From NCBI GenBank assembly GCA_038064595.1, contig JBBTSV010000003.1, positions 41,150-105,149 on the forward strand: a stretch of 64,000 nucleotides of DNA. The letters are read 5' to 3'. This stretch comes from Patescibacteria group bacterium (lineage in GTDB: Bacteria; Patescibacteriota; Minisyncoccia; Phycocordibacterales; Phycocordibacteraceae). The position numbers and the translations under genes are program-made. Positions 14,722-56,008 of the stretch are shown one piece after another. How positions within the stretch are numbered: position 1 is the stretch's first letter; each line of letters starts with the position of its first letter. The notes under the pieces were generated by a model. The model had not been told where the DNA came from, ran no database searches, and was given only the letters and a program-made list of their open reading frames with translations.

Positions 14722-14761
14722 GAGGCACTAAGAGACGTTGCGCGCACGCTATACTGTGTGC

Positions 14762-16945: not shown

Positions 16946-17253
16946 ATACCACCACACACCGCATCGTAGCCTCGCTCAAGCGACTCCGTCGAAGCTCGTA
17001 CGAGGACCCAGAACGGGGGTGGGTGATTCTTATCACGCTCGCCGCCATTGTACTCGCGGGAATTATCATTTGGGATATCTGGGCGTTTGACACGGTTGCA
17101 AAAGGCGGGGTGATTGGTAGAAGGGTAGCGAGCACCACCCCGGCATTTGACAGTGCCGTGATAGATAAGATTCAGGGTATTTTTGACACGCGCGCTGCAG
17201 AGGAGGCGAAATATATAACCGGCGCATACCACTTTACTGACCCTTCGCAATAG
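16942..17253 (+). CDS. small membrane protein in the pilus operon
   Basis: Single TM helix. ATGA overlap with pilO. Confidence 0.35.
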   Translation: MNTTTHRIVASLKRLRRSSYEDPERGWVILITLAAIVLAGIIIWDIWAFDTVAKGGVIGRRVASTTPAFDSAVIDKIQGIFDTRAAEEAKYITGAYHFTDPSQ

Positions 17254-17371: not shown

Positions 17372-18469
17372 ATGCACACCCCCCGTTTTTATCACTCCAA
17401 GGCCGCGCTTCCCAAGGGCGCGCGCGTGAGAGATACGTTTGATGGCGCAGTTGATGAGCTCTTTTTTATCGAGCATCCAGCAGTGAGTAAACAAGATTCA
17501 CGTGCACCAGAACTTCTTAAGAAGTTTCGTGCACGCAGAAAAGTCTCCAGTCTCTGGGTCTACTATCCATGGCTCCATACTGCGGTGCGGATCCCATCAC
17601 AAACATTCTATGAGCATTTGCGGACAGCACGGAACCGCAATCTGATTCGTCCCGAAGAGCAGAAAAAATTTCGCCAGTCTATTGTGGGTGTGGCAGGACT
17701 TTCAGTCGGGTCAGCAGTGGTTGCCTCGCTTGTCGCGACAGGCGGACCACGTCGGTTGAAGATTGCTGACCCAGATACGATTGAGATCACCAACCTCAAT
17801 CGTATGCGCGCCACACTCGCCGATGTGGGAGAAAACAAGGCAGTGGTTGCGGCGCAAAACGCATGGGAAATTGATCCGTTTGCACAGATCGAGGTGTGGG
17901 ATAAGGGCATCCAAACAGAGACGGTAAAAAAGTTCATCACTGCCAAACCAACTCTTGATGTGTTTGTTGACGAGATGGACGATATTCGTATGAAAGTAGA
18001 AGCACGCCTCGTATGTAAAAAAGCACGTATCCCGGTGGTGATGGCGACCGACAATGGCGACAGTATCATTGTTGACGTCGAGCGTTTTGATCAAGAGCCA
18101 AGCCGCCCGCTCTTTCATGGACGGGTGACACTCACGCGAGCGGAGATGGCGACGATGACCCGGAGCCAATTCGTCGCACTTTCAACGAGGATTATCGATC
18201 CTGCACACCTCACCACTCGCCAACAAGAATCGATACGCGCTATTGGTTCTGAACTCGCGGGCATTGCACAGCTCGGGACGGCGGCCGCCCTTGCTGGGGC
18301 CGCAGTGAGTTATGTGGTACGGCGCATTGTATGCGGTGAGCCGCTCCCGTCGGGGCGCTACTCGATGGGATGTGAACCAACATTTATCCCTGGTTACCTG
18401 AGCGCGCGCGAAAAACAGAAACGCACACGCCACACCCGCGCATTTGTGGGAGGGCTCGGAGCACACTAG
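17372..18469 (+). CDS. ThiF/MoeB (E1-like) family adenylyltransferase with N-terminal extension
   Basis: Rossmann motif IVGVAGLSVGSAVVASLVATGG and NLNRM, inside roughly 100-aa flanking extensions. Confidence 0.7.
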   Translation: MHTPRFYHSKAALPKGARVRDTFDGAVDELFFIEHPAVSKQDSRAPELLKKFRARRKVSSLWVYYPWLHTAVRIPSQTFYEHLRTARNRNLIRPEEQKKFRQSIVGVAGLSVGSAVVASLVATGGPRRLKIADPDTIEITNLNRMRATLADVGENKAVVAAQNAWEIDPFAQIEVWDKGIQTETVKKFITAKPTLDVFVDEMDDIRMKVEARLVCKKARIPVVMATDNGDSIIVDVERFDQEPSRPLFHGRVTLTRAEMATMTRSQFVALSTRIIDPAHLTTRQQESIRAIGSELAGIAQLGTAAALAGAAVSYVVRRIVCGEPLPSGRYSMGCEPTFIPGYLSAREKQKRTRHTRAFVGGLGAH

Positions 18470-39710: not shown

Positions 39711-40346
39711 ATGGGCCAGTACATTGTGTTTGACGGAATGGATGGGTCGGGCAAGGGCACCCAGATGAAGCTCTTGCAGGAACGGTTCGGTGCCACGGCT
39801 GTGTTCACCCGAGAACCGGGTGGAACGCCGTTCGCCGAGGAAATCCGGAGAGTCGTCCGCGACAACCCGCTCGCGGCTACCTCGACGGGGCTCAACAACT
39901 TCCTCTTGTTCTGGGCGGCACGCGAGGAGCTACAGCAGAATCTCGTGGCACCGGCGCTTCAGGCAGAGAGGCACGTGTTCTCTGACCGGGGCGACTCGTC
40001 GACCTACGCGTTTCAGCTGTGGGGCGAACAACATCGCGAGTTGCTGGGTCTGTTCAAGCTCTTGCGTTACTTCGTGTTCGAGAAGTCGCGCGAGCGTCGC
40101 GCGCCCGATCTCTACATCATCTTCGACTTGCACCCGCGAATCGCGCGCGAGCGGGTGATGGCAGACAGCGCGCGCGAGCAGAACCACTTCGACATGCGCG
40201 ATCTCGAGTACTACCAGCGGGTTCGTGAGGGGTTCCACAGCTTCGCGAGCCAGTGGCCAGCGGTATTTCTCGATGCGACGCGGCCTCCTGCCGAGGTTCA
40301 CCAGGACGTTCTCGATCTGCTCGCGTCTCGGGGGATCGTTCCTTGA
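39711..40346 (+). CDS. tmk: thymidylate kinase
   Basis: P-loop FDGMDGSGKGTQ. AGGAG RBS. Confidence 0.85.
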   Translation: MGQYIVFDGMDGSGKGTQMKLLQERFGATAVFTREPGGTPFAEEIRRVVRDNPLAATSTGLNNFLLFWAAREELQQNLVAPALQAERHVFSDRGDSSTYAFQLWGEQHRELLGLFKLLRYFVFEKSRERRAPDLYIIFDLHPRIARERVMADSAREQNHFDMRDLEYYQRVREGFHSFASQWPAVFLDATRPPAEVHQDVLDLLASRGIVP

Positions 40347-40409
40347 ACACAACACCGGCGCGCCTTGGCGCGCCGGCACATTTTTAGATAGTAAGGTAGG
40401 ATAGAAATC

Positions 40410-41672
40410 ATGCAGTTTTCGAACATCAAGAAACAGGATAAGGCGGTCTATGAGGCCATTGTCGGCGAGGAGAAACGACAGAAGGAGGGGCTCGAGCTCA
40501 TCCCGAGTGAGAATTATGTGAGCCGAGCGGTGAAGGAGGCGATGGCCTCCTCCCTCACCAATAAATACTCGGAGGGGTATCCGGGTCGCCGCTACTACGG
40601 CGGCCAGGAGTATACCGATCAGGTAGAGCTGCTCGCTATCGAGCGCGCCAAGAAGCTCTTTGGTGCTAAGTATGCCAACGTACAGGCCCTGGGCGGCGCC
40701 AATGCCAACATCGCCATGTACTTCGCCCTCCTTAACCCCGGCGACACGATCCTCGGGATGGACCTCTCGCACGGCGGGCACCTCACGCACGGCCACCCCG
40801 TGACGTATCTCACCAAGATCTTCAACTTCCAGAGGTACAAGATGAAGAATATCGAGACGGGTGAAATAGACTATGCCGAGATGCGCCGCACGGCAAAAAA
40901 GATTAAGCCCAAGATTATCCTCGCCGGCTTCTCGGCCTATCCGCGCGAGCTCGACTATAAAAAGTTCGTCTCGATCGCACGCGAGGTCGGTGCAATAGCG
41001 GTGATGGATATCGCACACATTGCTGGCCTCATCGCAGGGAAGGCAGTTAAGAATCCTTTCGACTACGGCTTTGACATCATGACGAGCACGACCCACAAGA
41101 CGCTCCGGGGCCCGCGTGGCGGCTTGATTCTCGTGCGCGAAAGCGAAGAACTCGCGAAGTCGATTGATAAGGCGATATTCCCTGGCCTTCAGGGCGGCCC
41201 GCACATGCACCAGATTGCCGCCAAGGCCGTCGCCTTCGGCGAGGCGCTGAAGCCGTCGTTTAAGAAGTATGCGAAGCAGATATTGAAAAACACCAAGGCG
41301 ATGGAGCAGGCCTTCAAGAAGCATAAGGCGCGCATGATCACGGGCGGGTCTGACAATCACCTGATTCTTCTCGATGTGTGGACCTCGTTCGGGATCTCGG
41401 GCGGGGAAGCAGAGGCGCTGCTCGACAGAGCTGGCATCACGCTCAATAAAAACGCGATCGCTGACGACACGCGCAAGCCGATGGACCCCTCCGGGATCCG
41501 CTTCGGCACACCGGCGATGACGACGCGCGGCTTTAAAGAAAAGGACGCCAAGCGTGTCGCCGAGATAATGATCGAGGTGCTTACGAAGCGTGACGACGTG
41601 GCCGTGAAGCGCTCTCGGCAGGAGATCAAGAAGCTCGCGCTCACTCACCCGATCCCCGAATCATTTTCCTAG
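40410..41672 (+). CDS. glyA: serine hydroxymethyltransferase
   Basis: SHMT motifs LIPSENY and TTHKTLRGPRGG. Confidence 0.95.
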   Translation: MQFSNIKKQDKAVYEAIVGEEKRQKEGLELIPSENYVSRAVKEAMASSLTNKYSEGYPGRRYYGGQEYTDQVELLAIERAKKLFGAKYANVQALGGANANIAMYFALLNPGDTILGMDLSHGGHLTHGHPVTYLTKIFNFQRYKMKNIETGEIDYAEMRRTAKKIKPKIILAGFSAYPRELDYKKFVSIAREVGAIAVMDIAHIAGLIAGKAVKNPFDYGFDIMTSTTHKTLRGPRGGLILVRESEELAKSIDKAIFPGLQGGPHMHQIAAKAVAFGEALKPSFKKYAKQILKNTKAMEQAFKKHKARMITGGSDNHLILLDVWTSFGISGGEAEALLDRAGITLNKNAIADDTRKPMDPSGIRFGTPAMTTRGFKEKDAKRVAEIMIEVLTKRDDVAVKRSRQEIKKLALTHPIPESFS

Positions 41673-41696
41673 CACGCCCCATTGGGACGACGAGGT

Positions 41697-41714
41697 GGTA
41701 TGATATATCATACC
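41697..41714. repeat. 18-nt perfect palindrome GGTATGATATATCATACC, copy A (glyA/yerC intergenic, followed by TTT)
   Basis: Exact match to copies B-D. Confidence 0.9.
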
Positions 41715-41729
41715 TTTAGCGTTTTACCC

Positions 41730-42158
41730 ATGACTCACATTTCCAAGAAAAGGATCAAGAAAGAAGTCGCGACAGAGCTCGCAGATCAGTTTCTGACTTT
41801 TCTATCACTCGCAACGAGTAAAAAGGAGGCACGCATTCTTGCCAACGAACTCCTTTCACAGACGGAGCGTGTGATGCTCGCGAAGCGTCTCGCGGTGGTC
41901 GTGCTCCTGGTGCGCGGGTACTCGTTTGGACAAATCGAAGAGGCGCTCGGGGTCACGCGCCAGACAGCTATACGAGTGTGGAAAGACGTAAAGCTCGGGA
42001 AGTATGACCACATAGCGCGCTATGCACGAAAACATACCAATCACTTCAAAAAAGAAGCATTTATAGAAAAACTCATCCGCACCATTCATCTTGGCATGCC
42101 TCCACGCGCGGGGAAGGGTCGTTGGAAATTTCTCGACAAATCCCTCTCGGGCTCATGA
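41730..42158 (+). CDS. TrpR-like YerC/YecD family DNA-binding protein
   Basis: LAKRLAVVVLLVRGYSFGQIEEALGVTRQTAIRV HTH resembles YerC. Start set at MTHISKK. Confidence 0.6.
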   Translation: MTHISKKRIKKEVATELADQFLTFLSLATSKKEARILANELLSQTERVMLAKRLAVVVLLVRGYSFGQIEEALGVTRQTAIRVWKDVKLGKYDHIARYARKHTNHFKKEAFIEKLIRTIHLGMPPRAGKGRWKFLDKSLSGS

Positions 42159-42160
42159 GT

Positions 42161-42186
42161 AAAAGGTATGATATATCATACCTTTT
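42161..42186. repeat. palindrome copy B, extended to AAAAGGTATGATATATCATACCTTTT (likely bidirectional terminator)
   Basis: 26-nt perfect palindrome between the yerC-like gene and argS. Confidence 0.85.
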
Positions 42187-42230
42187 GTCCCGACCGTAAA
42201 CCGTAAGGGGGGTTTGCTATACTCAAACAT

Positions 42231-43913
42231 ATGGAGGAGAAGATACAGAAGGCAGTACAGGGGGCGCTTGCGGATATGGGCGCAGGCGACGTTGCGTTTG
42301 CGATTGGGCGGCCGAACGGGGTGAGCTTCGGCGATTACGCGACCAACGCGGCACTGGTAGCAGCAAAGCAGCTGGGTAAGAATCCGCGCGAGCTCGCCGA
42401 ACAGCTCGCAGACACACTCAGGTCCTCGACTACGCTCGGACCGACCTCGATTGCTGCAATCGAGGTCGCGGGGCCTGGATTTGTGAATATTACGCTCGCG
42501 CGCGAGGCAGTGGCGCTTGCGGTGGCCGAGGCCGAGGTGCAGGGGAGTGAGTGGGGGAAGGGGACCGCGAGCTCCGGCGTGCGCACGATTGTCGAGTACG
42601 GGAACCCCAACGCTTTTAAAGAGATGCACATCGGGCATTTGGTGGGGACGGTAGTCGGCGAGTCTGTGGCGCGACTTATTGAGAATGCTGGCGCGACCTT
42701 GGCGCGCGACACCTTCGGCGGCGACATCGGCCCAAACGTCGCGAAGGCGCTCTGGGGGCTGCAGAAAGCGGGTGTCACGGAGCCGAGCGCGACTGATCTT
42801 GGTACCGCGTATGCCGCTGGCTCAAACGCGTATGACACCGATGAGACCGCGAAGGTAGAGATAGACGCGCTCAATCAGGCGATCTATGCGGGGAGCGACG
42901 CGGCGCTGATGGATCTTTGGCGCCGCGGGCGCGAGGTCTCGATGGAGGAGTTCCGTCGTATTTGGAAATTGCTCGGCACGCACTTTGACTTTGAATTTTT
43001 CGACAGCGACACGACCGAGACGGGACTGCGAGTAGTGAAGGACGGCCTCGAGAAGGGCGTGTTCGAGATGAGTGACGGCGCAGTTATCTATAACGGAGAG
43101 AAAAAGGGTGTGCACACAATGGTTTTCATCACCTCACATAACACGCCTACCTATGAGGCTAAAGATATCGGTCTCGCGTTTCTTAAAGAGGAGCGATGGC
43201 CCTCGGACAAGGTAATTATCGTCACTGGCAATGAACAGACCGGCCGTTTCAGAACCGTTCTTTCGGCGCTCGCAGAGCTCGCGCCGAACCTCGCAGCCAA
43301 GATGGAGCACCTCGCGACCGGTTTTCTCAAACTCACTTCAGGCAAGATGTCTTCGCGAGAGGGAAATGTCGTCACTGCTGCAGACTTCATTACGAGTGTT
43401 GTCGAGAAGACGAGTGAGAAGAATGCTGACCCACTCGTCGCAGAGCAGGTGGCGGTGGGCGCGATCAAGTATATGATTCTGCGTCAAGCGCCAGGATCCG
43501 ACATTATTTTTGACGAAGCAAAGTCACTCTCACTTGAGGGCGACTCGGGGCCATATCTGCAGTACGCGCTGGTGCGCGCTAAGTCAGTCGTCGCAAAAAC
43601 AGACGAGACGAACTCGTCAAAAGGTATGATATATCATACCAGTAGCACCAAACACTCGGATGAAGCATATGTGCTGGAGCGAATCACGCTGCACTTCCCG
43701 GAGGTGGCGGCGCGCGCCGCGAGCTCGCGTGCGCCCAATCTCTTGGTGAACTACCTCACCGAGCTCGCGGGGGAGTGGAATGCGTTTTATGCCAAAGAAA
43801 GAATCATTGGTGGCGAGCACGAGGCGCACAAGCTCTTGGTCGCGCGTGCGTTCATCAATACGATGACCAACGGACTCACTTTGCTCGGTATCCCCACCCC
43901 AGAGAGGATGTAG
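42231..43913 (+). CDS. argS: arginine--tRNA ligase
   Basis: HIGH (MHIGHLVG) and KMSK-like (KMSSREGNV) motifs. Contains palindrome copy C in frame. Confidence 0.95.
   Translation: MEEKIQKAVQGALADMGAGDVAFAIGRPNGVSFGDYATNAALVAAKQLGKNPRELAEQLADTLRSSTTLGPTSIAAIEVAGPGFVNITLAREAVALAVAEAEVQGSEWGKGTASSGVRTIVEYGNPNAFKEMHIGHLVGTVVGESVARLIENAGATLARDTFGGDIGPNVAKALWGLQKAGVTEPSATDLGTAYAAGSNAYDTDETAKVEIDALNQAIYAGSDAALMDLWRRGREVSMEEFRRIWKLLGTHFDFEFFDSDTTETGLRVVKDGLEKGVFEMSDGAVIYNGEKKGVHTMVFITSHNTPTYEAKDIGLAFLKEERWPSDKVIIVTGNEQTGRFRTVLSALAELAPNLAAKMEHLATGFLKLTSGKMSSREGNVVTAADFITSVVEKTSEKNADPLVAEQVAVGAIKYMILRQAPGSDIIFDEAKSLSLEGDSGPYLQYALVRAKSVVAKTDETNSSKGMIYHTSSTKHSDEAYVLERITLHFPEVAARAASSRAPNLLVNYLTELAGEWNAFYAKERIIGGEHEAHKLLVARAFINTMTNGLTLLGIPTPERM
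43621..43640. repeat. palindrome copy C inside argS (in-frame, encodes KGMIYHTS)
   Basis: AAGGTATGATATATCATACC within the coding sequence. Confidence 0.85.
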
Positions 43914-44269
43914 CTTGCGTGAAGTGAGACTTCACGGTAAATTCACGCGCACAGGCCGTTCACTCCCGGACGGACCTGCAACCAAGGAGTTCTCGATGAC
44001 GACAGCACAGAAGCGGCGCCACGCGCTGCATCGCATCCTTCGTTCCGGCGATACCCCGGAGCCCGTCAATCCGACGGACAAGAAAGAGGCGATGATCGAT
44101 GCGCTGGGCAGCGAGTCCACGAAGGACGTGAAGCCGCAAATGACCCGGCCGCCGGCCCACTCGGGCTACCACGCCGGCGCTCGGCGCTGAAGCGCCACTT
44201 CCAGGAAGTACGACAGCCGCCCCGCGCGGCTGTTCCCTTTTTAGCCTGTAAACGCTACGATACGCAGAT

Positions 44270-47648
<3,379 letters not shown>

Positions 47649-47659
<11 letters not shown>

Positions 47660-48209
47660 ATACCATACGCGCGGAATCATACTTACCCGCACTTCTGTGG
47701 GCGAGGCAAACGCCCTCATTACGGTGCTCGCCGCTGAGCTTGGACTGGTGCGTGCACGTGCGCAAGGCGTCCGCCGCTCGGGAGCAAAGCTCGCGCCGGC
47801 ACTCACCACATTTGCCGAGAGTACCCTTGTTGTGGTGCGGGGAAGGGAGGGGTGGAGGATTGCCGGCGCGGTACTCGAGACGCCGTGGTTCGCTCGGTTT
47901 ACCACCCGGGAGACGCGTGATACTGCTGCCCGTGTCGTTGGACTCGTTATCCGTCTTGCACCAGGTGAGGGTGAAAACACCGAGCTGTTTTCGATTCTCG
48001 AGAGTTTTTTTACTGCGCTCGCGACCTGCTCACCTGAAATGTATGAAGCGATCGAAATTCTTGCCGCACTTCGTATTCTTGCTGTACTCGGTTTTGATGC
48101 CGGAGGAATACCCACAGGATTTTCTCTGAAGGTACTCAAGAAAGTAATGAGTGAACGTCTCGTCTATATCGCACGGGTGAATCGGGGTATCGAAGCGTCG
48201 GGACTCTAA
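47649..48209 (+). CDS. recO: DNA repair protein RecO (short form)
   Basis: N-terminal OB-fold pattern [21 protein letters not shown]. Confidence 0.65.
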
Positions 48210-48230
48210 GGACTTGCTATACTAGGGGAT

Positions 48231-50138
48231 ATGCCTTCGCCGTCTGATGATGATTTGAGTTCACTCGAGCGCGCTCGAGAACGTCTCTACCAGCCTGTTG
48301 CGCCCACTCCCGTGCGCCGTTCCCTCGAGGCCGAACATTTTGGAGGTACCCCGCATGTGTGGGAGGACGATCCGTTGCAGAAAGTTGCAGCACAAGTTGC
48401 ATCTCAGCAACTCTCTGGAGGGAAAAAGCATGTGCGCCTTGCCAGTATCTTTTTTGTCGGCGCGTTTCTCTTTTTCCTCGTATCGCTCGCCGCAACCATT
48501 TTTGTATTTTTTGTGGGTGGAAACTCGGTCTCCGTCGACAAGGTTTCTCTTACTTTCGAAGGGCCAACCACAATCACGGGTGGTGACACCGCCTCCCTCG
48601 TTGTGACCATTACGAATACCAACGCGGTACCGATCAACGATGCGACAATCGAGATAACGTTCCCTTCAAGCACACGCAGTGCCGATGATGCCACTAAGCC
48701 GTATCCGCGTTATACCGAAAACCTCGGGACGCTTGCGAGCGGTGCGACTGTGACACGATCTCTCAAGGCGCGGTTCTTTGGCGGGCAGGGTGATGCGCTC
48801 AAGACATCAGCCTCTCTCTCTTATGCCGCTACGGGCTCTAATGCCGTATTTGTAAAAGAGACAACGTATGCGCTCACCGTGTCTACGACGCCGCTCGCGC
48901 TCACGGTCGAGACCGTTTCTGAAGTTGTGTCAGGCCAGCTTCTGACACTCGCAATCACAGCACGCTCAAATGCGAGTGTGCCACTCACCAACGTTGTCGT
49001 GAATAGTGTCATGCCATTTGGTTTTACGGTGCAGGACTCTTCGCTCCCGCTCAGCAATGGAAGCTTCCTTATCGGGACACTCGCGCCGGGTGCGACAAAG
49101 CGCATCACGCTCTCTGGCACGCTCAGTGGGCAGCAGAATGATCAGCGAGCGTTCCATTTTTCTATTGGGACCGCAAAGACAGCCAATGATCAGGCCCTCG
49201 CCGTTAACTACATGACCCAGAACATTTCTGTGGGCATTGTCGCTCCGTTTATTAACACCACTCTAGCGATCAATGGTGACACGGGAGCCACGGGCGTACT
49301 CACGGCCGGAGCGCAACAAAACATCACCGTTTCGTACACGAATACGCTCACCACTACTGTCACAAATGCAAATATTGCCGTGGCGATCACTGGCGCAGCG
49401 GTTGATTATGAGAGTCTTCGTACCGAGAATGGCTTCTATCGCTCGAGCGACCACACAATCGTTTTCAGTCGTGACACTGACCCGGCTCTTGCAGTGCTCG
49501 CTCCGGGTGCTTCAGGTCTGGGGACCTTCTCCTTCTCAACACTGCCGGTGAACGCGCTCTCTGCGTCACCGAGTGTCACCCTCACCACCTCGGTGTCAGG
49601 GACGCGCGTCGGACAGACAAATGTCCCCGAACAGGTGACCGCGTCAGCGATGCGTGTCGCGAAGGTGACCACGCTGCCGACCTTGAGTGCAGCATCGCTT
49701 CGCATGGGTGGGCCGCTTACCTCAAGTGGGCCGATCCCACCGCGCGTGGGACAGGCCACGACCTACACAGTTTTGTGGAGCATACGTACCCACGGAGGCG
49801 CGCTTGCGGGCAACACACTCTCAGCCACACTCCCAAGCTATGTCACCTACACGGGAGCAACTTCAGGTGCGGGCAGTTTCTCATATAATCCAGGTGCTCG
49901 TACGGTTACCTGGGGTGTTGGTGACCTTGGTGCCAACTCAAGCGCGCAAGGATACTTCCAGGTTTCGATTACGCCCTCAACCTCACAGCGAGGAACCTCG
50001 CCGGCGCTTACGGGCGGCGTAACCTATAGCGGCTATGATCGCTTTGCGGGGGTACAAGCCAATGCGACGACCGAGGCGGTGACCACTGAAACGCCGACCG
50101 ACCTAGGGTATGTCGCGGGGAAGGGAGTTGTGCAATAA
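48231..50138 (+). CDS. large membrane-anchored surface protein with repeated beta-rich (Ig/DUF11-like) domains
   Basis: N-terminal TM helix followed by Thr/Ser/Val/Ala-rich repetitive modules. Confidence 0.5.
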   Translation: MPSPSDDDLSSLERARERLYQPVAPTPVRRSLEAEHFGGTPHVWEDDPLQKVAAQVASQQLSGGKKHVRLASIFFVGAFLFFLVSLAATIFVFFVGGNSVSVDKVSLTFEGPTTITGGDTASLVVTITNTNAVPINDATIEITFPSSTRSADDATKPYPRYTENLGTLASGATVTRSLKARFFGGQGDALKTSASLSYAATGSNAVFVKETTYALTVSTTPLALTVETVSEVVSGQLLTLAITARSNASVPLTNVVVNSVMPFGFTVQDSSLPLSNGSFLIGTLAPGATKRITLSGTLSGQQNDQRAFHFSIGTAKTANDQALAVNYMTQNISVGIVAPFINTTLAINGDTGATGVLTAGAQQNITVSYTNTLTTTVTNANIAVAITGAAVDYESLRTENGFYRSSDHTIVFSRDTDPALAVLAPGASGLGTFSFSTLPVNALSASPSVTLTTSVSGTRVGQTNVPEQVTASAMRVAKVTTLPTLSAASLRMGGPLTSSGPIPPRVGQATTYTVLWSIRTHGGALAGNTLSATLPSYVTYTGATSGAGSFSYNPGARTVTWGVGDLGANSSAQGYFQVSITPSTSQRGTSPALTGGVTYSGYDRFAGVQANATTEAVTTETPTDLGYVAGKGVVQ

Positions 50139-50147
50139 TCCAGGTCT

Positions 50148-51473
50148 ATGACAGATCAGAACCTCATGGAGAAGATCGTCTCGCTCTGTAAGCGCCGGGG
50201 CTTTGTTTTCCCGGGCTCCGAGATCTACGGCGGTCTCGCCGGCACGTATGATTATGGGCCCATGGGTGTGGTGCTGAAAGAAAATGTCGAGCGTCTCTGG
50301 CTCCAGATGTTTCGTGACAGTCGAGACGATATGTACGGTGTCGATGCCTCGATTTTAATGAATCCAAAAGTATGGGAATCATCAGGTCATGTCGCCGGAT
50401 TCTCTGATCCGCTAGTGGAATGCGAGAAATGTCACCATCGCTTCCGCGCTGATCAACTAGACGACCCAACAAAATGCACGGACTGTGGAGGAAAACTTGG
50501 TGGGGCGCGCCAATTTAATATGATGTTCGCGACGAAGGCAGGAGCGTCAGAAGATGATTCTGCGACCGTATATCTTCGACCCGAAACAGCCGGTGGCATC
50601 TTCACGAACTTCAAGAACGTAGTCGACGCACTTCACCCGAAGTTGCCTTTCGGTATTGCGCAGATAGGGAAGGCGTTCCGCAATGAGATTGCGCCGCGTG
50701 ATTTCATCTTTCGCTTGCGCGAGCTGGTTGCGATGGAAGTCGAGTATTTCGTAAGGCCCGACCAATGGGAGCTTGCGTTCGAGGAATGGCGCAACATTAT
50801 GCATGCCTATGCAGATGCGGTAGGAATCCCGAGTGGCATGGTACATGAGCTCGAAGTGTCGGACAGCGATCGTGCCCACTACTCGAAGCGTACTATCGAT
50901 TTTGAATTCGACTACCCATTCGGCAGAAAAGAACTGTGGGGACTCGCGTACCGCACGGATTTCGATCTCTCGGCCCATCAGACGGGCTCGAGCGTGAATC
51001 TCGAATATCAGGACGAAGAAACGAAGAGCAAATTTATTCCACACGTGATTGAACCAGCTCTTGGTGTTGATCGCACTATTCTCGCAATCCTGACAAGCGC
51101 CTATCGCGAAGATGAGCTCGGCGGTGAGGTGCGCACCTATCTCGCACTCGCGCCCAAGATCGCACCGGTCAAAGCGATGGTCTCGCCACTTCTTAAGAAC
51201 AAGCCCGAGCTCGTTGAGAAGGCGCGCGAAGTGAGGAAGGAGTTACAAAAAGTGCATCCGGCGATAGCGTGGGACGACAACGGCAACATCGGCAAACGCT
51301 ACCGTCGTCAAGACGAGATCGGCACACCCTTCTGTATCACCGTCGACTTCGACACTCTTGGCGAATCTCCTGATCTTAAGGACACCATCACCCTACGTCA
51401 TCGCGATACGGGTGAACAGGAACGTCTCACGATCGTCGAAGTAGCTGACCGACTCCGCTCCGCCCTCGCGTAA
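50148..51473 (+). CDS. glyQS: glycine--tRNA ligase (alpha2 type)
   Basis: FVFPGSEIYGGLAGTYDYGP class II motif set. Confidence 0.95.
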   Translation: MTDQNLMEKIVSLCKRRGFVFPGSEIYGGLAGTYDYGPMGVVLKENVERLWLQMFRDSRDDMYGVDASILMNPKVWESSGHVAGFSDPLVECEKCHHRFRADQLDDPTKCTDCGGKLGGARQFNMMFATKAGASEDDSATVYLRPETAGGIFTNFKNVVDALHPKLPFGIAQIGKAFRNEIAPRDFIFRLRELVAMEVEYFVRPDQWELAFEEWRNIMHAYADAVGIPSGMVHELEVSDSDRAHYSKRTIDFEFDYPFGRKELWGLAYRTDFDLSAHQTGSSVNLEYQDEETKSKFIPHVIEPALGVDRTILAILTSAYREDELGGEVRTYLALAPKIAPVKAMVSPLLKNKPELVEKAREVRKELQKVHPAIAWDDNGNIGKRYRRQDEIGTPFCITVDFDTLGESPDLKDTITLRHRDTGEQERLTIVEVADRLRSALA

Positions 51474-51514
51474 GCGTCTGCCCCTGGCCCGGGCAGATAT
51501 GTTAGGATGCCCCT

Positions 51515-52558
51515 ATGGGAAAGGAGATTAGGATTTCTATCACATCAGGCACCCTCCTGACCGCGCTTGCTGTCGGGGTGGGGGCCTACCTCTTCTGGCT
51601 TCTGCGCGACCTCGTGCTCTTGGTGCTTACCGCGATCATCATCGCTTCAGCGATCGAGCCGTGGATTGCCTTTTTTATCCGTTACCGCATCCCGCGTTTT
51701 GTGAGCGCACTCTTGGTCTACGGGATACTGTTTGGGTTCGTGTTTGGGATGCTGTACGTTTTCTTCCCGCCCGTCGTGGCTGATGCTACCGACTTCTTTT
51801 CGGCGATGCCGACGTATCTCGATACGCTCAATCTCCCCCCGACCATCACCAACTCGACCAGTTTTGTGAATACAACACAGGGCGACCAGTCATTCCTGCA
51901 TACGCTGTTATCGTTACAGTCCGTCTTTACGGCGACCTCTGAGGGGGTCGTACAGCTCATGGTGCTCTTCTTTGGTGGGCTTTTCTCCCTCCTTCTCATC
52001 ATCGTGCTCTCGTTCTACTTTGCTCTCCAGGATACGGGGGTCGACGACTTTCTGCGTCTTGTCTTGCCTGTGTCATATGAGAATTATGCAGTTGATTTGT
52101 GGCGCCGCTCACAGAAGAAGATCGGGCTCTGGATGCAGGGGCAGGTGGTGCTCTCGGTGATCGTTGGGGTTCTCGTCTACCTCGGTCTTCTCATTATTGG
52201 GGTTCCCTACGCGCTTTTGCTCGCCGTCTTTACTGCCGTTGCTGAAATCATTCCGGTGTTCGGGTCGCTTATCGCAGGCGCTCTTGCGGTGATTATCGCG
52301 TTCTCAAGTGGCGGAGTCCCTCTCGGGTTAGTTGTTGCGGGGCTCTACGTCGTCGTCAACCAGTTTGAGTCGAATCTCATCTATCCGCTTATCGTGAAGA
52401 AGATCGTGGGTATTCCCCCGCTTCTCGTCATCGTGGCACTTATCGCAGGGTACACGCTTGCGGGTCCTTTGGGTGTGGTGCTCTCGGTACCAGTGGCGGC
52501 TGTCGTGCTTGAATTTATTACTGATTTCGACAAGCGCAAGCGCAAAGCAGCAGCGTAA
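51515..52558 (+). CDS. AI-2E family transporter (PerM/UPF0118)
   Basis: 8 TM helices and the AI-2E C-terminal pattern. Confidence 0.8.
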   Translation: MGKEIRISITSGTLLTALAVGVGAYLFWLLRDLVLLVLTAIIIASAIEPWIAFFIRYRIPRFVSALLVYGILFGFVFGMLYVFFPPVVADATDFFSAMPTYLDTLNLPPTITNSTSFVNTTQGDQSFLHTLLSLQSVFTATSEGVVQLMVLFFGGLFSLLLIIVLSFYFALQDTGVDDFLRLVLPVSYENYAVDLWRRSQKKIGLWMQGQVVLSVIVGVLVYLGLLIIGVPYALLLAVFTAVAEIIPVFGSLIAGALAVIIAFSSGGVPLGLVVAGLYVVVNQFESNLIYPLIVKKIVGIPPLLVIVALIAGYTLAGPLGVVLSVPVAAVVLEFITDFDKRKRKAAA

Positions 52559-52562
52559 CATC

Positions 52563-53996
52563 ATGAGTGCTCGCTATCTCACCACCACGCTCCCGTATGT
52601 GAACGCCGATCCGCATATCGGCTTTGCGCTTGAGACGGTGCAGGCTGACGCGCTCGCACGCAGCTGGCGCCTCGCTGGAGAGGAGGTCTTTTTCTCCATG
52701 GGGACCGATGAGCACGGACAGAAGATATTTGATGCGTCGGTCAAAGCAGGACAAGACGTGCAGGCCTACGTCGATCACTATGCAGAAGAGGTGCACAAGC
52801 TCACCGGCGCGCTCAATCTCGAGATCGACGGCTTCATCCGCACCACCAGCCCCGAGCACAAAGCGGCAGCCCAGGAGATGTGGCGCCGCTGTGCCGATGC
52901 GGGAGATATTTATAAAAAGACGTATACCGGCACCTACTGCGTCGGCTGCGAGTCATTTAAGACCGAGAGAGATCTTGTGGAGGGGAAGTGCCCCTTGCAC
53001 CCTTCGCTCACGCCCGAGACAGTCTCCGAAGAGAATCACTTCTTCAAATTCGCAAAGTATCAGGATCGCTTGCTTGAGTATCTCACGCGGAGGGACAGCA
53101 TCATCCCCGAGTGGCGTCGTGAAGAGGCGATCGCTTTTGTGAAGAGCGGCCTTGAAGATTTCAGTATCTCGCGGGAGAAGAAGCGTCTCACGTGGGGCGT
53201 GCCGGTGCCCGGGGACGACGAACAGGTTATGTACGTTTGGTTTGATGCACTCACGAGCTACCTCTCCACGCTTGGGTGGCCTACCGATGCAGAAGGAAAG
53301 TTTAAAAAGTTTTGGGAAGAGGGCGCGACGCTCCAGATGGCGGGGAAGGACCAAGTGCGCTTCCAATCCCTCATGTGGCAGGCCATGCTTTTCTCGGCAG
53401 GCATTAAGAATACCGACCACGTGTTTTATCACGGGTTCATCAACTCGGGCGGACAGCGGATGAGCAAATCTTTGGGGAACGTCATCAGCCCGTATGACCT
53501 AGTGAAGAAATATGGTACTGATGCCACCCGCTATATCCTCCTGCGTCACGTGCACCCAGTCGAAGATTCTGACGTTACGTGGGAGCGTCTCGACGAGTGG
53601 TATACCGCCAACCTTGTGAATGGGCTCGGCAACCTCGTCGCTCGCGTGATGCAGCTCGCGGAGACGAATTTAACCAAGCCAGTTGCGCGCCTAGAGGAGT
53701 CGCCCTTTGCCGAGGAGTACTGGAGTGCGCTCGGCGCATTTGAGTTCAGTCGTGTTATGGACTCGATCTGGGCACGGATACAGAAGCTCGACGAGCGTAT
53801 CACAAGCGAGAAGCCGTTCGCGCTGGTGAAAGAAGATGCCGAGAAAGGTCGAGCCCTCATTGCTGACATGGTCGTTGAGGTCTACCAGATCGCACGGCTC
53901 CTCAGCCCCTTCATGCCCGCAACAAACGAGATTATTAAAAAAGCGGTTCTTGAGAACAAAAAGCCCGAGAATCTTTTTCCACGTTTGACTGTATGA
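52563..53996 (+). CDS. metG: methionine--tRNA ligase
   Basis: PYVNADPHIGF (HIGH) and KMSKSLGN motifs. ATG at 52563. Confidence 0.9.
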   Translation: MSARYLTTTLPYVNADPHIGFALETVQADALARSWRLAGEEVFFSMGTDEHGQKIFDASVKAGQDVQAYVDHYAEEVHKLTGALNLEIDGFIRTTSPEHKAAAQEMWRRCADAGDIYKKTYTGTYCVGCESFKTERDLVEGKCPLHPSLTPETVSEENHFFKFAKYQDRLLEYLTRRDSIIPEWRREEAIAFVKSGLEDFSISREKKRLTWGVPVPGDDEQVMYVWFDALTSYLSTLGWPTDAEGKFKKFWEEGATLQMAGKDQVRFQSLMWQAMLFSAGIKNTDHVFYHGFINSGGQRMSKSLGNVISPYDLVKKYGTDATRYILLRHVHPVEDSDVTWERLDEWYTANLVNGLGNLVARVMQLAETNLTKPVARLEESPFAEEYWSALGAFEFSRVMDSIWARIQKLDERITSEKPFALVKEDAEKGRALIADMVVEVYQIARLLSPFMPATNEIIKKAVLENKKPENLFPRLTV

Positions 53997-54793
53997 ACGT
54001 GAAGTATGTGGATGCGCACTGTCACATCCAATTTGATCAGTATCAAGAAGATCAAACAGAGCTCATCGAGCGGATGAAGGAAGAGGGCGTGCAGGGCATT
54101 GTTGTGGGCTGCAATCGGGAGAGCTCCGAGCGCGCTCTTGCGCTCGCTGAAAAACATGAGCACCTCTATGCGTCAGCTGGCCTACACCCCAACCGCGAGA
54201 ACGATGAAAGGTATGATATATCATACCAGCGAGAACTTGCGATGAATCCACTCGTGGTGGCGATAGGGGAGTGTGGCCTCGATTATTTTCGCCCCACGGA
54301 AGTGAATGATGCGGTAAAAGAGAGTCAAAAAGAATTATTGAAACAGCAGATTGCGCTCGCCGCCGAGCTCGATAAGCCGCTTATCATCCACTCTCGCCCA
54401 AGCAAGGGCACCCAAGATGCGTATCACGATTTGATTGAGATATTGACTGAAGCGAAGCAACAGCACCCCAACGTGCGCGGCGATATCCACTTCTTTGTGG
54501 GAGGCATTACTGAAGCGCAGGCGCTCATCGCGCTCGGTTTTACCCTCTCCTTCACCGCGGTGATAACCTTCACCCGCGACTATGACGAGGTAATCCGCTC
54601 GGTCCCGCTCGCCTCTATCCTCTCCGAGACAGACGCGCCCTATGTCGCACCGCTCGCGCGGCGCGGGCAGCGTAACGACCCCCTCGCCGTCATCGACGTC
54701 GTCGCCCAGATCGCCGCTATCCGCGGTGAAGACCCTGAAACCGTCCGTCAAACCCTCGCCGAGAACTCCAAACGCCTGTTTTTGCTCGGATAA
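53993..54793 (+). CDS. tatD: TatD family hydrolase
   Basis: HCHIQ, AIGECGLDY and HSR motifs. Contains palindrome copy D in frame. Confidence 0.85.
   Translation: MNVKYVDAHCHIQFDQYQEDQTELIERMKEEGVQGIVVGCNRESSERALALAEKHEHLYASAGLHPNRENDERYDISYQRELAMNPLVVAIGECGLDYFRPTEVNDAVKESQKELLKQQIALAAELDKPLIIHSRPSKGTQDAYHDLIEILTEAKQQHPNVRGDIHFFVGGITEAQALIALGFTLSFTAVITFTRDYDEVIRSVPLASILSETDAPYVAPLARRGQRNDPLAVIDVVAQIAAIRGEDPETVRQTLAENSKRLFLLG
54210..54227. repeat. palindrome copy D inside tatD (in-frame, encodes ERYDISYQ)
   Basis: AAAGGTATGATATATCATACC within the coding sequence. Confidence 0.85.
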
Positions 54794-54838
54794 GGGGCTC
54801 TTGCTATGGGGTAAATCGCGTGGTAGGATGTCGCTATT

Positions 54839-55333
54839 ATGGCTAAAAATAAGGATGCAGAGGTGAGTATGGACGATGTTGATGCGATCGGGAGTGATCC
54901 GCGTGTCTACGAGCTCGGCTTTCATCTTGATCCGGAGCTCCCGAGCGAGGAGGTTAAAAAGGCCTATCAGGCCGTGCGTGGGATGATCGCTGATGCGGGC
55001 ACCGTGGTCGCTGAGGGCGAGCCACACAAGATCCAACTCGCCTACACGATCTCCCGCCAAGAAGTAGGAGGGCGCCGCGACTTTGATAGCGCCCACTTCT
55101 CCTGGATCGCCTACGAGACGACTCCCGATAAGCATGCCGAGGTGATCGCTGCTGCGGGAGCGAATAAGCAGATCATTCGCTTCATCGATCTCATCACAAC
55201 CAAAGATGCGGCGCGTCACGCGGTCGAGATGCAGGAGATCGCGCTCACGATGCCGGAGCAGATCGAGGAGGAGCCGGATGCTCCTGCTGCGGGAGCTGAA
55301 CTCGATGCAGTCCTTGAGAAGGTCACCCTCTAA
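54839..55333 (+). CDS. rpsF: 30S ribosomal protein S6 (N- and C-terminal extensions)
   Basis: RVYELGFHLDPEL core. Lies upstream of ssb and rpsR in the conserved order. Confidence 0.8.
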   Translation: MAKNKDAEVSMDDVDAIGSDPRVYELGFHLDPELPSEEVKKAYQAVRGMIADAGTVVAEGEPHKIQLAYTISRQEVGGRRDFDSAHFSWIAYETTPDKHAEVIAAAGANKQIIRFIDLITTKDAARHAVEMQEIALTMPEQIEEEPDAPAAGAELDAVLEKVTL

Positions 55334-55336
55334 AAT

Positions 55337-55792
55337 ATGTACCTCAACAAAGCATTTCTCTACGGCAATCTCACTCGCGACCCAGAATTAAAGGCGCTCC
55401 CATCAGGTGGGCAGGTCGCCAGCTTCGGTATCGCGACCAACCGCACCTATAAGGACAAGAATGGTGCCAAGCAGGAAGCGACCGAGTTCCATAATATCGT
55501 TGCGTTCGGTCGCACGGCTGAAGTTATCGCGCAGTATATGAAGAAAGGTCGCCCGATCTTTGTTGAAGGTCGGATCCAGACCCGCTCATGGGATGACAAA
55601 GAGACGGGTAAGAAGAACTACCGCACCGAGATCGTCGTCGACAACTTCCAGTTTGGCGCCGATGCCAAGGGCGGTCCCTCGACAGGCTCTGGGCAAGCAG
55701 CCGGTACATCAGATGAACACTCGGCGCCGAGCGAGGGCGAGACGATCAAGTATCCAGACGAGGAGATCAACCCAGAAGACATTCCTTTTTAA
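55337..55792 (+). CDS. ssb: single-stranded DNA-binding protein
   Basis: OB fold NKAFLYGNLTRDPEL and an acidic C-terminal tail ending DIPF. Confidence 0.9.
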   Translation: MYLNKAFLYGNLTRDPELKALPSGGQVASFGIATNRTYKDKNGAKQEATEFHNIVAFGRTAEVIAQYMKKGRPIFVEGRIQTRSWDDKETGKKNYRTEIVVDNFQFGADAKGGPSTGSGQAAGTSDEHSAPSEGETIKYPDEEINPEDIPF

Positions 55793-55801
55793 TTTATTAC
55801 C

Positions 55802-56008
55802 ATGGCCTACCAAGCAGAGCGCGAAGAGATTGAGATTAAGAAGTTTATCGACTACAAAGACGTTGCGTATCTACGCCAGTTCACCAATGCACACGCCAAG
55901 ATGCTCGCGAAGAAGCGTACCGGAATCCCGGCGCTGAAGCAGCGTGAGATTATGCAAGCCGTGAAGCACGCTCGCTACATGGCGCTCCTCCCCTACGTCG
56001 CTGCGTAA
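55802..56008 (+). CDS. rpsR: 30S ribosomal protein S18
   Basis: IDYKDVAYLRQF S18 signature. Confidence 0.9.
   Translation: MAYQAEREEIEIKKFIDYKDVAYLRQFTNAHAKMLAKKRTGIPALKQREIMQAVKHARYMALLPYVAA

Follow-up and report, generated by a model that had tools for sequence, protein, structure and literature searches.

An 18-base perfect palindrome, GGTATGATATATCATACC, brackets a small gene for a TrpR-fold protein (P0001) and recurs in frame inside essential genes, and we consider it probable, if not strongly so, that it is the cognate operator of a Patescibacteria-specific TrpR-family regulator that controls its own gene and a regulon with sites in coding DNA. The sequence-only reading had raised an operator for the flanked HTH protein as a secondary idea; it is now the best-supported one, given a conserved unit of one gene plus two palindromes and the co-variation of palindrome and protein. 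On our best reading, GGTATGATATATCATACC is neither primarily a terminator nor a transposing element of the Rickettsia palindromic element (RPE) kind. If the operator reading is true, binding sites of a regulator are written in frame inside essential genes across a lineage of ultra-small bacteria, the Patescibacteria.

Palindrome copies and host genes in the window

The window (the whole stretch of DNA analyzed, 64,000 nucleotides) holds four exact copies of the palindrome, A to D (Table 1), where the number expected in shuffled sequence is 0. All four lie within 12.5 kb, ~47 to 60 kb from dnaA/dnaN, and the motif is absent from the other ~72 kb examined of this organism. Pattern searches allowing up to 3 and up to 5 mismatches gave no further match, and ~84 kb of the organism holds no degenerate copies. 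The recurrence first described from the letters is borne out, as is the position of copies A and B on either side of a small TrpR-like gene; the AAA(A) said to precede the palindrome is present at three of the four copies (B, C, and D).

Table 1. Coordinates of the palindrome copies and associated features in the window
Feature	Positions	Strand	Remarks
Copy A	41697..41714	no strand	palindrome upstream of the TrpR-like gene, 15 nt to its ATG
TrpR-fold HTH protein gene (P0001, 142 aa)	41730..42158	+	Pfam PF01371 match, Foldseek
Copy B	42161..42186	no strand	core 42165-42182, inside the 26-nt perfect palindrome AAAAGGTATGATATATCATACCTTTT
Putative argS promoter	42215..42223	+	TGCTATACT, extended -10, 7 nt before ATG 42231
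argS (ArgRS, 560 aa)	42231..43913	+	host of copy C; orthologue comparison
Copy C	43623..43640	no strand	in frame within argS, GMIYHT
tatD (266 aa)	53993..54793	+	host of copy D; start overlaps metG stop
Copy D	54210..54227	no strand	in frame within tatD, R-YDISY-Q

Many genes in the window have TGnTAnnAT boxes 6 to 9 nt before their ATGs; the organism probably uses leaderless mRNAs, and an extended -10 close to the ATG appears typical of its genome. Copy A overlaps promoter-like elements, namely, a TGGTATGAT extended -10 at 41695-41703 and TATCAT at 41706-41711, and a third such element, TAGCGT at 41717-41722, lies 7 nt before the P0001 ATG. Regulator homologues elsewhere have the palindrome 3 to 29 nt before their ATG: at five loci (L021, L056, L069, L009, and L018) it ends 3 to 8 nt before the ATG, with TATCAT at -12..-7, and at others the interval is 15 to 29 nt. 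Some solo intergenic copies sit 17 to 84 nt upstream of other gene starts, which are classical promoter positions. Copy B, 6 nt 3' of the regulator stop codon and 48 nt 5' of the argS ATG, has its center at about -58 relative to the inferred argS start and can fold into a hairpin of -16.8 kcal/mol (z = -4.4). The proposal that copies A and B are terminators proved weak, as a terminator scan flagged 0 of the 4 copies; the terminators that it did flag in the window are GC-rich, with 6 to 9 G-C pairs in the stem. The TTTT tail of copy B pairs with AAAA, and the terminator reading suits at most this downstream copy. In positions 40000-56000, no Rfam 15 covariance model matched with an E value of 1 or below.

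Codon reading of argS and tatD confirmed that copies C and D are in frame: copy C is read as GGT ATG ATA TAT CAT ACC and copy D in the other open frame, while the third frame of GGTATGATATATCATACC has TGA. The antisense hairpin and T-run noticed earlier at these copies are present (TTTT after C, TTT after D), and the antisense strand of both presents the extended -10-like TGGTATGAT. The claim that the intragenic copies add 7 to 8 residues holds for copy C and fails for copy D. At copy C, ArgRS exceeds the 119 closest orthologues in length by ~7 aa, through a lineage-specific, in-frame gain of 21 nt found in 1 of 120 sequences and located in the hypervariable loop that opens the DALR anticodon-binding domain; in other genomes, a palindrome site in uvrB comes with a 13-aa in-frame length gain. 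In TatD, the segment at copy D has identical length in 106 of 120 orthologues (WYEIEKY, SFDEAAY, etc.), so that RYDISYQ replaces ancestral residues of the WYEIEKY type at the same length rather than being inserted. A near-invariant Tyr has become Gln, a change that makes the palindrome 18/18, and TatD orthologues picked without regard to the DNA motif match the palindrome at 17/18, 17/18, and 15/18 positions. Same-length, in-place conversion is likewise seen at the pyrD, trpS, enolase, and mpg sites. The tatD site is scattered across the TatD tree, which could mean repeated gain through an active process.

Conservation of the site and its co-variation with a TrpR-fold protein

The palindrome recurs in many Patescibacteria genomes, with 2 to 6 exact copies in each, and its intragenic copies are in frame at orthologous codons of ~22 housekeeping gene families, 7 of them repair or replication genes. 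The complete genome OY969413 (993 kb) has six exact copies, at 280, 495, 851, and 910 kb, a spread indicating that the sites are not clustered there. Across 7 orthologous site clusters with 24 copies, the 18-mer is 100% identical, against 42% identity at third codon positions of the flanks; the flanking synonymous sites are, by this comparison, saturated. ATA makes up only 11% of Ile codons, and the probability that the peptide is encoded by exactly this DNA is ~0.002. By these measures, constraint at the DNA level holds the 18-mer perfect. Of the copies counted in 360 kb, 51 are perfect, 2 carry one mismatch, and none carries two, a perfect-or-nothing spectrum that is unusual for operators.

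Intragenic sites are mostly mid-gene, 15% to 95% along the open reading frame. Operators do not normally act from mid-gene positions, and there would be little regulatory point in a roadblock close to the 3' end of a gene, as in argS and murD. Of 55 intragenic copies, 13 follow an AAA(A) on the sense strand, which reads as a T-run on the antisense strand, and 2 have a sense-strand T-run, an asymmetry that probably arises because Lys is tolerated in loops and Phe is not. In other genomes, the mpg and enolase codons that hold the site are occupied by different, likewise perfect palindromes centered on ATATAT, AGTTCCATATATGGAACT and CCTCCATATATGGAGG, as expected if a site persists while the specificity or the responsible paralogue changes. 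Symmetric flanks extend the 18-bp core to 24 bp, with a full site of R-n-W-GGTATGATATATCATACC-W-n-Y; extensions past the core are variable yet self-complementary, yielding perfect palindromes of up to 46 nt, and locus L078 shows compensatory arm changes within one locus. Self-complementary extensions and arm changes of this kind are more typical of a hairpin/cruciform constraint or a palindrome-maintaining mechanism than of pure protein recognition.

P0001 passes the Pfam Trp_repressor model PF01371 (28.9 bits against a gathering cutoff of 27) and has an invariant N-terminal MxHxSxK, the HTH, and a conserved C-terminal GMPPRxGxGRW arm (alignment A1). Its AF2 model has a pLDDT of 78, exceeding 85 across residues 11-100, and the best 41 PDB matches in Foldseek are all TrpR or TrpR-like (probability, 0.99 to 1.00; TM normalized to target, 0.56 to 0.81, with 0.65 to 0.8 for the top hits), confirming a TrpR fold for the predicted structure. 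PDB entries 3KOR and 3FRW are weak hits to P0001. The model is all helical, and neither it nor Foldseek revealed a nuclease or recombinase domain, although the HTH has weak similarity to the N termini of IS630 and IS30 transposases. No HUH or catalytic Tyr motif is conserved across the family in alignment A1, and homologues were not found on phages or plasmids. The family comprises 88 homologue clusters, nearly all with a precomputed PF01371 assignment, and among the source names listed for them every one is Patescibacteria/CPR. P0001 scores below the NCBIfam equivalog cutoffs for yecD_yerC (TIGR02531; 14.5 versus 42.2 bits) and TrpR (TIGR01321; 17.8 versus 67.25). Judged from its sequence, P0001 forms a branch of its own, confined to Patescibacteria and extended at the C terminus. 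TrpR and HisR/YerC bind palindromes of ~20 bp and commonly autoregulate, and the operator consensus in this family is lineage specific and changes along with the protein (PMC9413887).

The same 18-mer adjoins regulator homologues of 66 to 88% identity in 7 other loci, and the flanking pairs are 462 to 530 bp apart. A gene bracketed by the dispersed palindrome is found in at least 15 cassettes besides that of copies A and B, with a downstream copy in every cassette examined. At least 9 loci keep the order (glyA or thyX/tmk)-pal-regulator-pal-argS, and the cassette stays beside argS through 58 to 100% regulator protein identity, with a copy B-type site 36 to 58 nt before the argS ATG in all relatives that have this synteny. 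In these loci the outer bases of the palindrome shift symmetrically, from GG..CC to AG..CT; stable synteny together with symmetric base changes argues for vertical co-evolution and not transposition. Around more distant homologues, the flanking pair, with one copy upstream and one downstream, consists of other palindromes, mostly GATATATC-centered: TAGTATGATATATCATACTA at P0066 (58% identity to the regulator), CCACTATGATATATCATAGTGG at P0076 (42% identity), ACATACGATATATCGTATGT at P0075, TTACGATATATCGTAA in three copies at P0084, AATAGTACGATATATCGTACTATT at P0088, and CTATCGCGATATATCGCGATAG at P0086. P0073 has CCTACA-N6-TGTAGG, with a second copy that keeps the arms around a different, nonpalindromic center. 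Protein and site therefore co-vary, across at least 9 lineages in our comparison. The identical 18-mer also flanks a second TrpR-like subfamily, which is only 28% identical and differs in its recognition helix, so no simple recognition code applies. One complete genome holds two cassettes, one of them in a different context, and paralogous protein/palindrome pairs coexist within one genome (L009, L074).

Proposed mechanism and rival explanations

We suggest that a dimer of P0001, presumably responding to an effector, would read the two palindrome arms by its recognition helices, while the invariant PPRxGxGRW portion of its C-terminal arm possibly reads the invariant AT-rich center. Since copy A overlaps the regulator's own leaderless, extended -10 promoter, the regulator is probably autoregulated, as TrpR and HisR usually are. 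Copy B completes the unit and might serve as a hairpin or roadblock at the regulator 3' end; because it lies 36 to 58 nt before the argS ATG in all syntenic relatives, argS is probably coupled to the regulator through it. Copies C and D would add high-affinity sites to the regulon; selection acting on the DNA sequence would keep them perfect, and coding sequence would house them because these genomes have almost no intergenic DNA. Such sites would use the two stop-free frames and tolerant loops, and they may arise from conversion of similar codons (xxIYxx) or from small loop insertions. Their probable effect would be a repressor-dependent roadblock and/or control of the antisense extended -10-like element.

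It is unlikely, if still worth weighing, that the palindrome is instead a selfish minimal element with the HTH protein as its maintenance or mobilization factor, in a REP/RAYT- or RPE-like manner. Templated conversion or insertion would copy it into coding loops and near-matching presites, and intrapalindrome correction or gene conversion, not host benefit, would keep the copies perfect. The lineage-specific gains in argS and uvrB would fit, as would identical copies with degenerate ones almost absent, a gene bracketed by its own repeats as RAYT genes are by REPs, the paired cassettes of one complete genome, a scattered tatD site that overrides a conserved Tyr, symmetric flank extensions with compensatory arm changes, and the faint transposase resemblance of the HTH. 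However, a 142-aa, all-helical TrpR-fold protein without a nuclease or recombinase domain or homologues on phages or plasmids is a poor candidate for such a factor, and so few exact copies per genome, sites at orthologous codons where synonymous sites are saturated, lasting synteny beside argS, and many same-length replacements without target-site duplication all speak against it. We regard as quite unlikely a self-propagating pair of HTH protein and palindrome, a minimal "site-only" mobile element working through protein-guided templated conversion of near-cognate codons (xxIYxx) or small loop insertions, with palindrome self-correction and a specificity that diversifies with paralogues; if true, it would be a new kind of genetic element, editing essential genes in frame without a transposase.

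There is a slim chance that the TrpR-like protein organizes, segregates, or marks the chromosome, much as the parS/ParB, matS/MatP, or SBS/SlmA systems do, a role that would explain both the irrelevance of gene context and the use of coding DNA. Sites such as parS are few per genome, palindromic, tolerated inside genes, and strongly conserved, as here, and canonical parS was not found in the window. The grouping of copies A to D relative to dnaA/dnaN would suit this role, but the OY969413 copies are unclustered, recurrence in the same gene families across genomes suggests that selection favors particular genes and not chromosomal positions, several paralogous pairs can share one genome, and the upstream copy overlaps the regulator promoter. 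We find it highly improbable that the palindrome is purely structural, that is, a bidirectional intrinsic terminator or mRNA-stabilizing stem-loop with antisense termination in argS and tatD. Terminators need neither identity across genera nor a 5' copy that matches the 3' one; the stem, which contains just 3 G-C pairs, went unflagged where real terminators are GC-rich, the upstream copy occupies a promoter instead of following a gene, antisense z-scores do not stand out (-1.7), the P0073 pair retains arms but not a self-complementary center, and the Rfam search found no match. These points stand against the location of copy B and of downstream copies elsewhere at the tip of longer A-run/T-run palindromes, the excess of sense-side AAA(A), and arms that vary while complementarity stays.

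Comparison with known systems

An intrinsic terminator has a G+C-rich stem and a U-run at a gene end; the scan result and the location of copies C and D inside essential genes led us to reject this identity. DNA uptake sequences (DUS/USS) and parS, matS, and SBS sites are, like the palindrome, short and symmetric, selected at the DNA level, and tolerated within coding sequence, where they show reading-frame/peptide biases. Enrichment in genome-maintenance genes is reported for DUS, and the repair and replication genes among the host families recall it. A DNA uptake sequence is nevertheless out, since these occur hundreds to thousands of times per genome (~1 per kb), orders of magnitude above the copy number here, and unlike parS, matS, and SBS, the palindrome has no ParB-, MatP-, or SlmA-type protein and its sites are dispersed in a complete genome. 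The likeness to REP/RAYT systems lies in a small gene bracketed by a palindrome that is also dispersed in the genome and co-varies with the protein clade. RAYTs are HUH/Y1 transposases, an identity ruled out for P0001 by its TrpR fold and lack of an HUH or catalytic Tyr motif; REPs are extragenic and high copy, unlike the few, mostly intragenic copies of GGTATGATATATCATACC.

The analogy to RPEs drawn in the sequence-only reading is superficial. Palindromic DNA does lie in frame within essential genes that stay intact, and the argS and uvrB copies are true in-frame gains that extend surface loops, but tatD, pyrD, trpS, enolase, and mpg have same-length conversions. RPEs measure ~100 to 150 bp and occur in dozens to hundreds of copies in a genome; all are known as insertions, and no gene for a dedicated binding protein is known to go with them. 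The unit here is 18 to 24 bp, with 6 exact copies in the 993-kb genome and 4 in ~84 kb of this organism, and its sites are common to orthologous positions across genera; low copy number, orthologous codons in deeply diverged genomes, and other palindromes at the same codons undercut the analogy further.

To our knowledge, CPR bacteria lack the amino acid biosynthesis operons that TrpR and HisR control. P0001 shares its fold with the TrpR-family repressors (Escherichia coli TrpR; HisR, which is Bacillus subtilis YerC), and on the operator reading the systems would be alike in an 18- to 20-bp palindromic site with an AT-rich center, in its overlap with the regulator's own promoter, which implies autoregulation, and in a lineage-specific operator consensus that changes with the protein (PMC9413887). 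Unlike those repressors, P0001 has ~45 extra C-terminal residues with the invariant GMPPRxGxGRW, a second palindrome copy always lies downstream of the P0001-type gene, and most other GGTATGATATATCATACC sites are intragenic, perfect, and conserved at orthologous codons.

Occurrence of the palindrome in the window and across Patescibacteria

The perfect 18-nt palindrome GGTATGATATATCATACC occurs exactly four times in the 64-kb window, at each of the positions where the sequence-only reading had located it. No further match was found in the window at up to 3 or up to 5 mismatches, shuffled window sequence held no occurrence, and ~19 kb more of the same organism, from both sides of the window, contained no extra copy. 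Contigs of this organism were found in the Hainich H41 groundwater assembly ERZ1292625. The intragenic copies C and D use the two stop-free frames of the 18-mer; the third frame contains TGA.

Palindrome copies and other features of the window
Feature	Position (nt)	Remark
GCGGCGCGCGCCGC	2362-2375	14-nt palindrome
ORF starts preceded by tRNA-like sequence	9215, 17372, 22947
TGnTAnnAT box	11590-11598	Minus strand
AACTTCTTAAGAAGTT	17511-17526	16-nt palindrome
glyA	40410-41672
Copy A	41697	15 nt ahead of regulator ATG
Trp_repressor-like ORF (regulator)	41730-42158	142 aa
Copy B	42165	6 nt past regulator stop; center of 26-nt perfect palindrome AAAAGG...CCTTTT
TGnTAnnAT box	42215-42223
argS	42231-43913
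Copy C	43623	Within argS; frame GGT ATG ATA TAT CAT ACC = GMIYHT
GCGGCGCGCGCCGC	43707-43720	In argS, 67 nt downstream of copy C
ORF	43915-44190	91 aa, no Pfam match, between argS and ileS
Terminator	44212-44234	Strong, GC-rich; GACAGCCGCCCCGCGCGGCTGTT plus T-run, 3′ of 91-aa ORF
ileS	44270-47659	After argS; IleRS, 1,129 aa
recO and others		After argS
TGnTAnnAT box	48214-48222
metG, rpsF, ssb		Around copy D
tatD	53993-54793	Around copy D
Copy D	54210	Within tatD; other stop-free frame = YDISY
TGnTAnnAT box	54821-54829

Several neighboring features deserve mention in their own right. The IleRS carries a complete His_Phos_1 domain (PF00300, 119.7 bits) within its catalytic domain (aa 505 to 662); this histidine-phosphatase insert is also present in comparison loci L080, L081, and L200 and absent in L082 (957 aa). 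In L205, a locus from the same organism, dnaN and dnaA lie at 14399-16967, about 3.4 to 6 kb left of the window start, so the window begins a few kilobases from a probable replication origin. L205 also holds a LAGLIDADG-like ORF (1952-2296, ~9.7 to 10.0 kb in the window). In the window, sequences resembling tRNA 3′ halves (T-arm/acceptor; one with encoded CCA) directly abut three called ORF starts.

Scanning one genome per species for exact matches returned 73 stretches with the 18-mer, of which ~43 belong to Patescibacteria MAGs with 2 to 6 copies per genome (Kaiserbacteria, Adlerbacteria, Zambryskibacteria, Giovannonibacteria, and Paceibacterota), and at least 117 more came from a metagenome scan. 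Six copies are present in the complete 993-kb genome OY969413, at 280.4, 280.9, 495.4, 851.3, 851.8, and 909.6 kb. Matches outside CPR (Flavobacterium, Chitinophagales, Sarcina, Halodesulfovibrio, and others) are single copies tipping long AT-rich terminator hairpins; since 9 matching bases suffice once a palindrome exists, we take them to be chance or unrelated. A sequencing or assembly artifact is ruled out, as assemblies made independently in many studies show the motif at orthologous codons.

A TrpR-like protein and its flanking palindromes

The ORF between copies A and B passes the Pfam Trp_repressor threshold and falls below the TrpR and YerC/HisR equivalog cutoffs, and the YerC-like structures 3KOR and 3FRW match it weakly. 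Its predicted model (pLDDT 78) adopts the TrpR fold, with the top 41 PDB matches all TrpR or TrpR-like. Among its 88 homologue clusters, every source name given is Patescibacteria/CPR, and searches of 50,697 phage and 72,556 plasmid records found no homologue. The clusters share an invariant N-terminal MxHxSxK and, unlike TrpR, a C-terminal GMPPRxGxGRW arm. A start at the ATG inside copy A, in frame in 6 of 7 upstream copies, was rejected because it is with the downstream Met that the conserved MxHxSxK begins, and because the distance from upstream palindrome to regulator ATG is not constant (3, 6, 8, 15, 19, 24, 28, or 29 nt).

Homologues at 66 to 88% identity adjoin the same 18-mer, pairs of which bracket the gene 462 to 530 bp apart in the window and in L009, L018, L021, L056, L069, L092, L106, and L138. 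More distant homologues are flanked by other palindromes. One at 58% identity, with the same thyX/tmk-regulator-argS synteny, has two copies of TAGTATGATATATCATACTA; another at 42% identity is bracketed by a CCACTATGATATATCATAGTGG pair, further ones by ACATACGATATATCGTATGT, AATAGTACGATATATCGTACTATT, and CTATCGCGATATATCGCGATAG, and yet another has three copies of TTACGATATATCGTAA. In one pair, CCTACA-ATCGAT-TGTAGG/CCTACA-ATTAAC-TGTAGG, the arms are common and the center is not. These different pairs are the decisive sign that protein and site covary. In L200:2937-2956, L202:2895-2926, and L203:1285-1310, the regulator stop codon falls within the downstream palindrome or immediately next to it; that of L200 is the TGA of the palindrome itself, so that gene end and site are fused.

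A second TrpR-like subfamily (L009, L069, L104, L106, L138, and L195) shares just 28% identity with the window protein and has a different recognition helix, yet it is bracketed by the identical 18-mer, which contradicts a simple recognition-helix/arm code. Its members start MKVRAK..., and LYRLKKKYPLHFLLF replaces the GMPPRxGxGRW arm. In L069 and L106, the gene adjoins one for an FtsE-like ABC ATPase (N-terminal sequence judged by eye), while L009 has two paralogues, with GG..CC and AT..AT variants.

Palindromes within coding sequence

After de-duplication, 55 Patescibacteria copies lie within long ORFs, 47 in the GMIYHT frame and 8 in the YDISY frame. Their hosts are about 22 Pfam-confirmed families: repair and replication proteins (RecG, UvrB, UvrC, Mpg, an HhH-GPD glycosylase, HolB, and TatD), tRNA and translation proteins (ArgRS, TrpRS, TsaD, Dus, and MnmA), cell wall enzymes (MurD, MurA, MurI, and two glycosyltransferases), and enolase, PyrD, a ZIP transporter, a methyltransferase, and a reverse transcriptase. 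In the last (RVT_1; L122:1364-1381), the 18-mer sits in frame immediately ahead of the conserved GLPxGxxxS motif. Within a host family, the palindrome occupies the same codon positions from genome to genome, with two separate sites in MurD.

The claim that copies C and D are in-frame insertions holds for argS and fails for tatD. The ArgRS of Kaiserbacteria MAG PFBL01 (66% identical, same synteny) lacks 7 residues exactly at copy C. Among the 120 best ArgRS orthologues (68 to 75% identity), the window loop is ~7 aa above the modal length and GMIYHT is unique to the window protein, so copy C was gained in this lineage, within a loop that is hypervariable. The TatD segment, however, has the same length in 106 of 120 orthologues, with WYEIEKY, SFDEAAY, and similar sequences at those columns; it was thus converted in place rather than enlarged by 8 residues. 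xYDISYx occurs in 10 of the 120, scattered on a weakly resolved NJ tree; for three of these, the DNA is GGTATGATATATCATACT in two (17/18, with the Tyr kept) and GATATGATATATCACACT in the third (15/18). In the window and PFBL01, the palindrome is 18/18 and the near-invariant Tyr is Gln. "Empty" orthologues likewise have same-length precursors in PyrD (GIRYRT versus GMIYHT, 11/18 DNA matches) and TrpRS (GLLYEE), unlike UvrB, with a 13-aa insertion at the site.

In clusters of orthologous sites, third codon positions are 42% identical over 20 flanking codons, whereas the 18-mer is wholly identical. ATA makes up 11% of Ile codons, and the probability of exactly this DNA for these peptides is ~0.002. 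Across 360 kb of such loci, 51 copies are perfect, two have one mismatch, none has two, and one has three. Symmetric extension favors T/A at -1/+1, a purine at -3 (47/51), and a pyrimidine at +3 (46/51). In other genomes, the same codons of enolase and Mpg hold different perfect palindromes, CCTCCATATATGGAGG (ASIYGG; e.g., L006:4485-4500) and AGTTCCATATATGGAACT (SSIYGT; e.g., L059:805-822), both retaining the ATATAT center, so these positions have held palindromes whose arms vary between lineages. Several palindrome "dialects" can coexist within one genome; AGTATG.., ACTATG.., and TACGATATATCGTA are further variants. In the window and 79 loci, 104 of 122 GATATATC octamers belong to perfect palindromes 16 nt or longer. 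Palindromes also show variable extensions that stay self-complementary, as well as arm changes that compensate each other.

Regulatory interpretation and comparison with known systems

Most window genes have a TGnTAnnAT extended -10-like box 6 to 9 nt ahead of the ATG and no Shine-Dalgarno sequence, so transcripts appear leaderless, apparently as a rule in this organism. Copy A spans the -35/spacer region of a TAGCGT box, offers TGGTATGAT (compare TGGTAGGAT of rpsF), and contains the sole sigma-70-like match in 39 to 56 kb (TTGGGA-18-TATCAT). In L021, L056, and L069, 3 nt separate the palindrome from the regulator ATG, which puts the internal TATCAT of the palindrome at -12 to -7. The downstream palindrome lies 36 to 58 nt ahead of the argS ATG in all syntenic relatives, and some solo intergenic copies lie 17 to 84 nt in front of other genes. 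The palindrome ATG as a leaderless internal translation start was rejected, the flanks having no -10 box at the needed distance.

The suggestion that the palindrome is an operator for the flanked HTH protein has become the best-supported reading, given the conserved unit and the covariation of protein and palindrome, and we lean toward a putative cognate operator of a Patescibacteria-specific TrpR-family protein. Copy A would be an autoregulatory site and copy B a boundary, possibly coupling argS. Intragenic copies may be further regulon sites kept perfect through selection on DNA; as there is hardly any intergenic room in these genomes, such sites would be lodged in coding regions. Since the antisense strand of copies C and D, and of 32 of the 55 intragenic copies overall, carries TGGTATGAT, repressor-controlled antisense initiation or roadblocking is plausible there.

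Five observations speak against a simple operator and keep three rivals alive: mid-gene placement, the shared 18-mer of the divergent second subfamily, the variable extensions with compensatory arm changes, the perfect-or-nothing mismatch spectrum, and the patchy phylogenetic spread of the tatD site. A self-propagating palindrome/HTH pair, which would be a new minimal class of mobile DNA, seems unlikely to us; the palindrome-regulator-palindrome unit beside argS is syntenic in at least nine loci, a stability that argues for vertical coevolution and not transposition. We give still less credence to a role in chromosome architecture; the copies of the window organism cluster ~47 to 60 kb from dnaA, but those of OY969413 are dispersed. 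A search for canonical parS in the window gave only a chance-level 3-mismatch match. Weakest, and quite improbable, is a terminator or hairpin. Copies A and B had been thought to look like terminators, but the scan flagged none of the four copies, genuine terminators in the window are GC-rich, and termination does not need sequence identity across genera. An Rfam search at permissive thresholds gave no match to a known RNA family. Arms around an AT-rich 6-bp center formally resemble dif/Xer-like or att-like recombination sites, a reading rejected because it leaves de novo same-length sites in genes unexplained.

Patescibacteria have very few transcription factors, and to our knowledge, gene regulation in this large uncultured share of bacterial diversity is almost unknown. 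The putative regulator-site pair, conserved in Kaiserbacteria, Adlerbacteria, Zambryskibacteria, and relatives, is concrete and testable. If the operator reading is true, DNA-level selection for the site sets six codons in essential enzymes such as ArgRS, TatD, RecG, UvrB/C, and MurD, overriding a conserved residue and persisting amid saturated synonymous sites, a case of "overlapping codes." That hosts in DNA repair, tRNA/aminoacylation, and the cell wall recur may point to a global housekeeping regulon. The unusual feature would be a regulon with a perfect putative operator that essential genes throughout a candidate phylum carry in frame. The searchable literature yielded no description of the motif or arrangement, no paper with the 18-mer, 14-nt core, or peptide GMIYHT, and nothing relevant on CPR with palindromes, leaderless mRNAs, or transcription factor motifs.

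Among known systems, the proposed analogy with Rickettsia palindromic elements does not carry over, as size and copy number differ and many sites here are not insertions. The HUH transposase of REP/RAYT systems is missing, and copy number is far too low for a DNA uptake sequence. TrpR and HisR/YerC bind roughly 20-bp palindromes, with autoregulation common (PMC9413887). The window system would work like these TrpR/HisR operator systems, through a protein that belongs to the TrpR fold family and is an orthologue of neither.
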